DNA of 64,000 bases from a virus (IMGVR_UViG_2713896908_000007), one strand, 5' to 3'; positions 40,861 through 42,344 are shown, numbered from the stretch's first letter. Numbers and translations: made by a program. Notes: generated by a model not told the origin, from the letters alone.

Positions 40861-41892
40861 CTAATCACCATCTTCCAGTAGGCGCACCATTGCCCCCGTT
40901 TCACTATCCAGGTTACGAATGTAGTTCATGACAATATTTACGTTGGTCCAGCCGCCAGCTTGCATGATCTCCGGTATAGAAACTCCGGCGCGGGCCATAT
41001 CTCGCGCGGCACCGACACGGGCACTATGTCCAGACCAGGCCAGGTATCGCTGACCAGAGTCATCTTTTGCCCCGTAAATCAATCGGTGAGTTGCTTCAAA
41101 AATCCCTTCCAGGGCGCGAGTTGATAGCTGGCTGGTGGATGATGGCGCGGCAACACCATTTTTTCTGACGCGGCAAAACAGGTAGTTATTCGGATCATCA
41201 GCTACACCAGAGACAGAAATCCATCGCTCAACCAGTTTAGTTACCCCCAGGCTAAGTGCCTTCTCTACACCAGCGGTGCTAACCAGCGTTTTCGTTCTGC
41301 CAATATGGATTAACATTCTCCCACCGTCAGTACGTGAGATATCTTTAACCCTGATCCTGGAAATTTCGGCTATACGTAACAGGGTGTTATAAGCAATCCC
41401 CAGAAATGCCAGATTACGTATATCCTGGCAGCGATCGCTATTTTCCATGAGTGAACGAACCTGGTCGAAATCAGTGCGTTCGAACGCCAGTGCCTGTTTT
41501 GCACGTTCACCGGCATCAACGTTTTCTTTTCGGATCCGTCGCATGACCAGTGAAACAGCATTGCTGTCACTTGGTCGTGGCAGACCGGACCGACGATGAA
41601 GCATATTTAGCTGGCCCAAATGTTGCTGGATAGTTTTCACTGCCAGACCACGCGCCTGAAGATATAGAAGATAATCGCGAACATCTTCAGGTTCTGCGGG
41701 AAACCACTTCCGGTTATTCAACTTGCACCATGCCGCCCACGACCGGCAAACGGACAGAAGCATTTTCCAGGTATGCTCAGAAAACGCCTGGCGATCCCTG
41801 AACATGTCCATCAGGTTCTTGCGAACCTCATCACTCGTTGCATCGACCGGTAATGCAGGCAAATTTTGGTGTACGGTCAGTAAATTGGACAT
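40861..41892 (-). CDS. cre: Cre tyrosine site-specific recombinase
   Basis: 343-aa ORF matching phage P1 Cre essentially end to end from memory (MSNLLTVHQNLPALPVDATSDEVRKNLMDMFRDRQAFSEH…MVRLLEDGD); cognate loxP 420 bp upstream. Confidence 0.97.
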   Translation of the reverse strand: MSNLLTVHQNLPALPVDATSDEVRKNLMDMFRDRQAFSEHTWKMLLSVCRSWAAWCKLNNRKWFPAEPEDVRDYLLYLQARGLAVKTIQQHLGQLNMLHRRSGLPRPSDSNAVSLVMRRIRKENVDAGERAKQALAFERTDFDQVRSLMENSDRCQDIRNLAFLGIAYNTLLRIAEISRIRVKDISRTDGGRMLIHIGRTKTLVSTAGVEKALSLGVTKLVERWISVSGVADDPNNYLFCRVRKNGVAAPSSTSQLSTRALEGIFEATHRLIYGAKDDSGQRYLAWSGHSARVGAARDMARAGVSIPEIMQAGGWTNVNIVMNYIRNLDSETGAMVRLLEDGD

Positions 41893-41899
41893 TTAACAC

Positions 41900-42121
41900 T
41901 CAGATAATGGTTTTAAGTAAAGTGTACAGGATCGGCTCTGCCTTTACCTGTTTATGGTTCTCGTCATAGAAACGCCAGCGACCGCGCGTGCGTTCTATTT
42001 TCTCTTCACCGCGCGATAATGACAGTTGACAACTATCACGATCAAACCCTTTTGCCCGCCAGTAACCACGGTTTTTCTCAAGCTCAATATGAGTGGACAC
42101 TTTAGCAGCTGAATATCCCAT
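41900..42121 (-). CDS. small ORF between loxP and cre (doubtful)
   Basis: 73-aa ORF in the cre promoter region; may be non-coding. Confidence 0.25.
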   Translation of the reverse strand: MGYSAAKVSTHIELEKNRGYWRAKGFDRDSCQLSLSRGEEKIERTRGRWRFYDENHKQVKAEPILYTLLKTII

Positions 42122-42217
42122 TTTTCACCTCTAATTGATTGGTGGTGCTAAGTGCGCTACGCAAAATCTGGAGCACTAACACTGCCAACTTTTCACAGAT
42201 TTTACGTAGCGCAAACT

Positions 42218-42236
42218 TGATCAAATGATCAAGTGA
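42218..42236. promoter_or_regulatory. cluster of three GATC (Dam) sites in the cre promoter region
   Basis: ttGATCaaatGATCaagtGATCact; Dam-regulated cre promoter is established for P1. Confidence 0.45.
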
Positions 42237-42310
42237 TCACTATTTGACCTGATAAGGTATTGAACTGTATGGATTTACAGGTAAATTGATCATGTTCAAT
42301 AACCCTTAAT

Positions 42311-42344
42311 ATAACTTCGTATAATGTATGCTATACGAAGTTAT
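42311..42344 (+). other. loxP site (Cre recombination target)
   Basis: Exact ATAACTTCGTATA-ATGTATGC-TATACGAAGTTAT. Confidence 0.97.

Follow-up and report, generated by a model that had tools for sequence, protein, structure and literature searches.

The region at 40861-42344 belongs, at a probability of about 0.93, to a natural phage-plasmid of the P1 family (Punavirus) and is its module for site-specific recombination by Cre at loxP; it is expected to work by the mechanism described for P1. The window is, throughout this text, the whole stretch of viral DNA that was analysed (64 kb), and positions are counted from its first letter. The identification is carried by sequence identity, the catalytic residues of the recombinase, synteny, the conservation of regulatory elements and purifying selection, and none of the results contradicts it. 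In P1, Cre/loxP is the multimer-resolution system (PMC10999674).

The loxP Site and the Cre Recombinase

A single exact copy of loxP (ATAACTTCGTATAGCATACATTATACGAAGTTAT) is found in the 64-kb window, at 42311-42344 on the minus strand, and it is identical to the P1 site in all 34 positions. The site comprises two 13-bp inverted repeats around an asymmetric 8-bp spacer (GCATACAT), with its centre at 42327. No second or pseudo-lox with up to three mismatches occurs elsewhere in the window, and 100 shuffles of the sequence produced no match. The exact 34-bp loxP that had been claimed in the initial annotation, made from the sequence alone, is therefore confirmed. The site is also unchanged in all eight aligned P1-family sequences, in which the bases just outside it vary. 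A lineage-specific patch of substitutions (42345-42372) directly adjoins loxP on the c1 side; it was not seen in P1 or in six other P1-like plasmids, and both loxP and the P4cre hexamers in and around the patch are unaltered.

The cre gene (40861..41892, minus strand) encodes a tyrosine recombinase of 343 amino acids, 341 of which are identical to those of P1 Cre, as had been anticipated in the initial annotation; the two substitutions are A178S and A252S. The protein aligns from end to end with the Cre chains of the PDB (1NZB, 1CRX, and others; E ~1e-229, with the two substitutions), matches the Pfam family Phage_integrase (PF00589, 2.8e-32), and keeps all of the residues R173, E176, K201, H289, R292, W315 and Y324. 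When cre is compared base by base with its P1 counterpart, 32 nucleotide differences (96.9% identity) are found, 30 of them synonymous, which gives a pS of 0.12, a pN of 0.0026 and a pN/pS of ~0.02. Judged by these ratios, cre is under strong purifying selection, and no substantial divergence from P1 Cre/loxP has been found in either the protein or the site. Both are nearly identical to their P1 counterparts, which have been crystallised and studied biochemically, and Cre would therefore be expected to recombine two lox sites, both in dimer resolution and in cyclisation. The Xer/dif and Xer/cer systems (XerC/XerD) have in common with Cre the enzyme superfamily and the task of replicon dimer resolution. 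The similarity to XerC is distant, however (30.7 bits for the NCBIfam XerC model, against a cutoff of 335), and Cre differs from Xer in being a single self-sufficient recombinase that acts on a simple 34-bp site without accessory factors.

Gene Order and Relatives of the Element

The gene order around the module, established from the ORFs and from collinear alignment with NC_005856, is ref-c8-cre-cra-lox-imcAB/coi-c1, as in P1. The interval between lox and cre contains cra (41900..42121, minus strand), a "cre-associated" ORF of 73 amino acids which is collinear with P1 cra (P1 207-428) and whose product shows two amino acid differences from that of P1. Cra belongs to phrog_804, a family without assigned function, and had no match in Pfam and NCBIfam; for Cra and C8 together, searches of Pfam, NCBIfam and PHROGs led to families of unknown function only. 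In many plasmid records, such as CP099035.1 and NZ_CP034163.1, this 73-aa product is labelled "creatininase", probably an annotation error spread from the gene symbol cra. Downstream of cre lies c8 (40499..40810, minus strand), a putative lysogeny-establishment gene with a product of 103 amino acids, also collinear with its P1 counterpart and with six amino acid differences. On the other side of lox, an ORF on the plus strand (43047..43898) encodes the c1 repressor of 283 amino acids; it is collinear with P1 93232-94800 (94.1% identity), is named "phage repressor protein C1" in a near-identical plasmid, and its position fixes the immC-lox-cre synteny.

The gap between cre and c8 contains, at 40827-40843 on the minus strand, the sequence ATTGCTCTAATTATTTT, with two mismatches from the C1 operator consensus, whereas P1 and P7 have ATTGCTATAATTATTTG at this position, with four mismatches and no annotated operator. 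This likeness hints at a possible control of c8 by C1 in the lineage of the window.

The assignment of the window to the P1 family, already made in the initial annotation, is borne out by collinearity with P1 over tens of kilobases, although the element is not P1 itself. The window is inverted with respect to the P1 map, and near lox the P1 coordinate is obtained as 42328 minus the window coordinate. Positions 1-25000 are collinear with P1 21.7-46.7 kb, and positions 51161-42328 with P1 89.0-94.8 kb, here with two insertions. The 1.8 kb of cre-lox DNA are 96.5% identical to P1 and 96-97% identical to P7, RCS47 and SJ46, and match 705 P1-like plasmids, mostly from Escherichia and Salmonella. 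The identity to P1 varies along this region: it is 80.8% in the 120 bp on the c1 side of loxP (with seven differences in the 10 bp nearest to the site), 94.7% in the spacer between lox and cra, 98.6% in cra, and 80% in the gap between cre and c8. Over a longer range the divergence from P1 is mosaic, with 87.6% identity in pacA-pacB (45626-48385) and 97.0% in lpa-pdcB (49718-51161), as against 96.9% in cre, a pattern which suggests that the packaging genes may have been replaced by recombination.

Several known elements were compared with the window. The P1 module (NC_005856, nt 94784-1467) has the same promoter hexamers, LexA box, Oc1e operator and Dam sites 1-3, but the window has an extra GATC, the differences in cre and Cre described above and a longer distance from lox to pac. 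Phage P1 itself was rejected as the source, given 96.5% identity at cre-lox, 87.6% at pacAB, and the extra ant/icd/C4 module and TnpB element in the window. P7 (NC_050152 / AF503408) shares four GATC sites with the window, and its Cre has S178 like the protein studied here, but A252 and D280 in place of S252 and G280; the two cre genes differ at 28 nucleotides. Plasmid pEA16-1_1 (NZ_CP117651.1; 99,447 bp), of an Escherichia albertii isolate from a starling, is 100% identical to the window over 40700-42500. In 17.8 kb around the locus, two mismatches and a single 14-bp indel separate the two, and they share the ant/icd/C4 insert and the TnpB element. The indel consists of 14 bp (TAATCGCGTCATAC) that are missing from the window at 36561/36562, inside a darB-like N6-methylase gene, which is an intact CDS of 2255 amino acids in NZ_CP117651.1 and corresponds in the window to two ORFs on the plus strand (30807..36581, 1924 aa; 36532..37560, 342 aa). 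The deletion appears to frameshift darB and, because of it, the alignment identifies the window as a very close relative or variant of pEA16-1_1 and not as that exact record.

These comparisons also bear on whether cre and loxP could be laboratory material, that is, P1 or a Cre-lox vector present as a contaminant or as an engineered insertion. The exact loxP and a Cre almost the same as the laboratory sequence would agree with such an origin, and stray exact loxP sequences do occur in unrelated records: matches of 33-36 bp that contain the whole site are found in Lactococcus phage Q33 (17547-17582) and at the end of a Pseudobutyrivibrio plasmid, where engineered sequence, or sequence derived from a vector, is the probable source. 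The cre gene of the window nonetheless differs from that of P1 by 32 nucleotides, its flanks are collinear with P1 yet diverged (80-95% identity), the context is of natural P1 type across the 64 kb, and the same sequence is carried by a plasmid of an E. albertii isolated from a wild bird. The mostly synonymous differences in cre, together with the native, diverged flanks, effectively refute laboratory contamination.

Promoters, Dam Sites and Operators

Three TGATCA hexamers with a spacing of 8 bp form an array at 42218..42239, with GATC at 42219-42222, 42227-42230 and 42235-42238. The initial annotation had reported three GATC sites within 19 bp in the cre promoter region; the sites and their location stand, while the span is 20 bp when counted inclusively. 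Read on the opposite strand, the hexamer at 42219-42224 gives TTGATC, which is the -35 of the P3cre promoter (pR1). The corresponding -10 hexamer, TAAAAT (42199..42204, minus strand), is assigned by homology, being the same as in P7 and at P1 nt 124-129, as annotated in NC_005856; the annotated spacer of P3cre is 14 nt. In the annotation of NC_005856, the GATC at 42227 corresponds to P1 Dam site 2 (nt 98-101) and that at 42219 to site 3 (nt 106-109), while Dam site 1 (P1 nt 37-40) is homologous to the GATC at 42288..42291. The remaining site, 42235-42238, is GACC in P1 (nt 90-93, nt 92 being C), hence the P1 cluster contains two GATCs; the same site is nt 90-93 in the P7 record, which annotates four Dam sites (nt 37, 90, 98 and 106). 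Among the matching PLSDB plasmids, 513 of 698 contain the exact 36-mer with its three GATCs. In an alignment of eight diverse members of the family, the 8-bp unit TGATCAAN occurs in two to three copies: three in the window and in three plasmids, two plus a degenerate one in P1, and two in three other plasmids. The three-GATC form is thus the common natural state (P7 type), and laboratory P1 is the variant.

It is important to note that the number of these sites is not in itself informative. The 239 GATCs in the 64 kb are the number predicted from composition, and with this density ~31% of random placements have at least one triple within 20 bp, so the argument that there are more GATCs than expected by chance was dropped. 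The triple is the only one within 20 bp in the window, with the two halves of pac next in GATC density. From the match to the annotated P1 and P7 Dam sites, the meaning of the triple is to be sought in its position and conservation.

Further elements of the region were located by their homology to P1. A LexA box (CTGT-N8-ACAG, 42263..42282) overlaps the divergent promoter P2coi and agrees in all 20 positions with the site at P1 nt 46-65 and with P7. P2cre (pR2; 42016..42045, minus strand) is situated inside cra and has the same hexamers as P1 283-288 and 307-312; its -35 hexamer, TTGATC, also holds a GATC (42040). P1cre (pR3; 41904..41928, minus strand) lies immediately upstream of cre, with the same hexamers as P1 400-405 and 420-424. 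On the c1 side of loxP, P4cre (-10 at 42359-42364 and -35 at 42383-42388, minus strand) has hexamers unchanged from P1, and the Oc1e C1 operator (42388-42404, minus strand), which matches ATTGCTCTAATAAATTT with two mismatches, is likewise unchanged. The P4cre hexamers and Oc1e have been kept although the surrounding 120 bp have an identity to P1 of only 80.8%. In a 343-bp segment (P1 94664..206), all 33 substitutions lie outside the annotated elements, which amount to 110 nt (loxP, Oc1e, the hexamers of P4cre and P3cre, the P2coi/LexA box and the Dam sites; hypergeometric P = 1.3e-6). Conserved elements amid diverged DNA are the pattern that would be expected of a functional, selected recombination site and its regulatory region. 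A generic scan for sigma-70 promoters and terminators over 40750-42550 detected none of the annotated cre promoters, which are therefore placed by homology to the P1 annotation.

Given the position of its -35 hexamer, transcription from P3cre can plausibly be modulated by Dam methylation, an effect suggested by the GenBank annotation of the P1 and P7 records. Sternberg and colleagues reportedly described Dam modulation of cre transcription in 1986. A search of the literature for Dam control of cre and for lox within the terminal redundancy gave nothing or tangential papers only.

A very improbable alternative is that the TGATCA array beside lox mainly binds a SeqA-type protein for hemimethylated GATC, or the pacase, and does not act as a promoter modulator. 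The hexamer is the same as that of pac, where the pacase recognises it, and the regular 8-bp phasing and the occurrence in two to three copies are the behaviour of a tandem unit. The spacing in pac is different, however (7-15 bp), no homologue of the cleavage region adjoins the array, and one of the hexamers is the annotated -35 of P3cre. Besides, two intact hexamers are enough for laboratory P1, and no more than two are present in some relatives. Modulation of P3cre is the preferred reading of the array.

Distance from lox to pac and Headful Packaging

The pac site (47923..48107, minus strand) is situated inside pacA (47108..48301, minus strand) and aligns with P1 90689-90919 at 95% identity. 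It contains four TGATCA hexamers on one side (48070-48107) and three on the other (47951-47977). All of its GATCs, and also the four left-hand TGATCA hexamers, are conserved with respect to P1, and one right-hand hexamer, the first of 47951-47977, is AGATCG compared with TGATCG in P1. The homologue of the P1 cleavage region is at ~48017-48026 and the cleavage position at ~48024, following the cleavage and IHF sites of NC_005856. The distance is 5,579 bp from the edge of loxP to the first GATC of pac, and 5,697 bp if measured from the centre of lox (42327) to the counterpart of the P1 cleavage site, as compared with 3,994 bp in P1. An earlier estimate had put loxP ~5.6 kb from pac and had taken this for the arrangement that places lox in the terminal redundancy for cyclisation; the distance is right (5,579-5,697 bp), but the arrangement is not that of P1, in which it is 4.0 kb. 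The greater length is due to a 1.7-kb insert of the C4/icd/ant (immI-like) type between c1 and pacB.

According to the P1 literature, packaging proceeds from pac towards lox. In a genome of 99,447 bp, the second lox would lie ~105.1 kb from the pac end. The capacity of the P1 head is ~105 kb, or 112% of the 94.8-kb genome (~106 kb) (PMC10999674). The terminal redundancy estimated from the 99,447 bp of the near-identical plasmid and a head of 105-106 kb is 5.6-6.7 kb, to be set against the 5,697 bp between lox and pac. Because the second lox would fall at the edge of this capacity, the presence of lox in the terminal redundancy of this element is plausible but marginal.

On these grounds Cre/loxP could be intact and yet serve essentially in dimer resolution only: by its growth to ~99.4 kb and by the 1.7-kb insert between c1 and pacB, the genome would have moved the second lox to the limit of the first headful or past it, and cyclisation after infection would be lost or rare. 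The longer distance from lox to pac and the second lox at ~105.1 kb fit such a restricted role, and the purifying selection on cre fits a role in plasmid maintenance equally well. The headful length of the element may, however, differ from the P1 value used above. Other estimates for P1 reach ~110-115 kb, and with a headful of this size the second lox would be comfortably included. Moreover, P7, with 101.7 kb, is a working phage, and the packaging direction is borrowed from the P1 literature. The restriction to dimer resolution is, as a whole, possible but unlikely, and the module is preferably read as one that would retain both functions of its P1 counterpart.

It may tentatively be proposed that variation in the copy number of the TGATCAAN array tunes the response of cre to Dam methylation or hemimethylation, so that Cre dosage would differ by lineage, and that a lox at the edge of the headful would shift the role of the system towards dimer resolution, although we consider this conjecture doubtful. 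The copy-number variation and the borderline geometry of lox-pac distance and genome length are the only observations of this analysis that are even mildly new.

Other Features of the Window

The immI-like module occupies 1,728 bp (43898-45625) between c1 and pacB, two genes that in P1 are only 24 bp apart. Within it are a C1-operator-like site (45604-45620), the isrK RNA (45451-45529) and the C4 antisense RNA (45319-45406), both of the latter found with Rfam, together with icd-like and ash-like genes and a gene for an antirepressor, Ant, of 371 amino acids with ORF6N and KilAC/ANT domains. The module is common to RCS47, JL22 and vB_EcoM-673R5.

The second insertion relative to P1 is an element of 1,332 bp (48386-49717), which encodes a TnpB of 393 amino acids (ORF 48503..49684, plus strand) with IS605 OrfB and Cas12f1-like TNB domains, and lacks TnpA. 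Its insertion point (P1 90445/90446) separates the late promoter LPpac from the stop codon of lpa, and LPpac is thus still joined to pacA. The frameshifted darB and the inserted TnpB element suggest that the parent element may be partly decayed. At 52295..58312 (plus strand) there are three large ORFs (520, 406 and 1038 aa) in the place where vB_EcoM-673R5, the best-matching phage, has HsdR2 and a restriction S subunit annotated, a position which suggests a type I restriction-modification system. No homologue of the P1 res/mod (type III) genes is evident between mat and darB; the observation also takes in 37600-39650.

Proposed Mechanism and Significance

The activity of the recombinase, the effect of Dam, the direction of packaging and the cyclisation of the genome are all transferred here from the P1 literature and annotation, and the following course of events would be expected. 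Cre would bind both 13-bp arms of loxP, with strand exchange inside the 8-bp spacer. As P1 Cre does, it would split dimers of the plasmid prophage into monomers, allowing the low-copy plasmid to segregate, and it could also circularise infecting linear DNA whose terminal redundancy holds two copies of lox. In P1, DNA flanked by lox and delivered from phage heads is circularised by Cre (PMC2841073). About four headfuls are packaged per P1 concatemer, starting from pac (PMC5557969), so only the first of them would have pac-proximal DNA in its redundancy, and the virions with two lox sites would correspond to this first headful, cut at pac. Transcription of cre would be driven by several weak promoters in the interval between lox and cre, the most distal of which is P3cre; since the -35 of the latter lies within the TGATCA array, Dam methylation could modulate it. 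Finally, the LexA box and the C1 operators beside lox may connect the region to the SOS response and to immunity control.

The Cre/loxP system found here is already known, and it is an ordinary, correctly identified landmark, which adds nothing new to Cre-lox biology. Its value is that it securely assigns the 64-kb window to a phage-plasmid of the P1 family, opposite in direction to the P1 map, and the coordinate frame that lox provides helps to judge other findings in the window. For the family, the region is a clean example of purifying selection, in which loxP, the regulatory hexamers, the operator and the LexA box remain intact amid a non-coding divergence of 10-20%.
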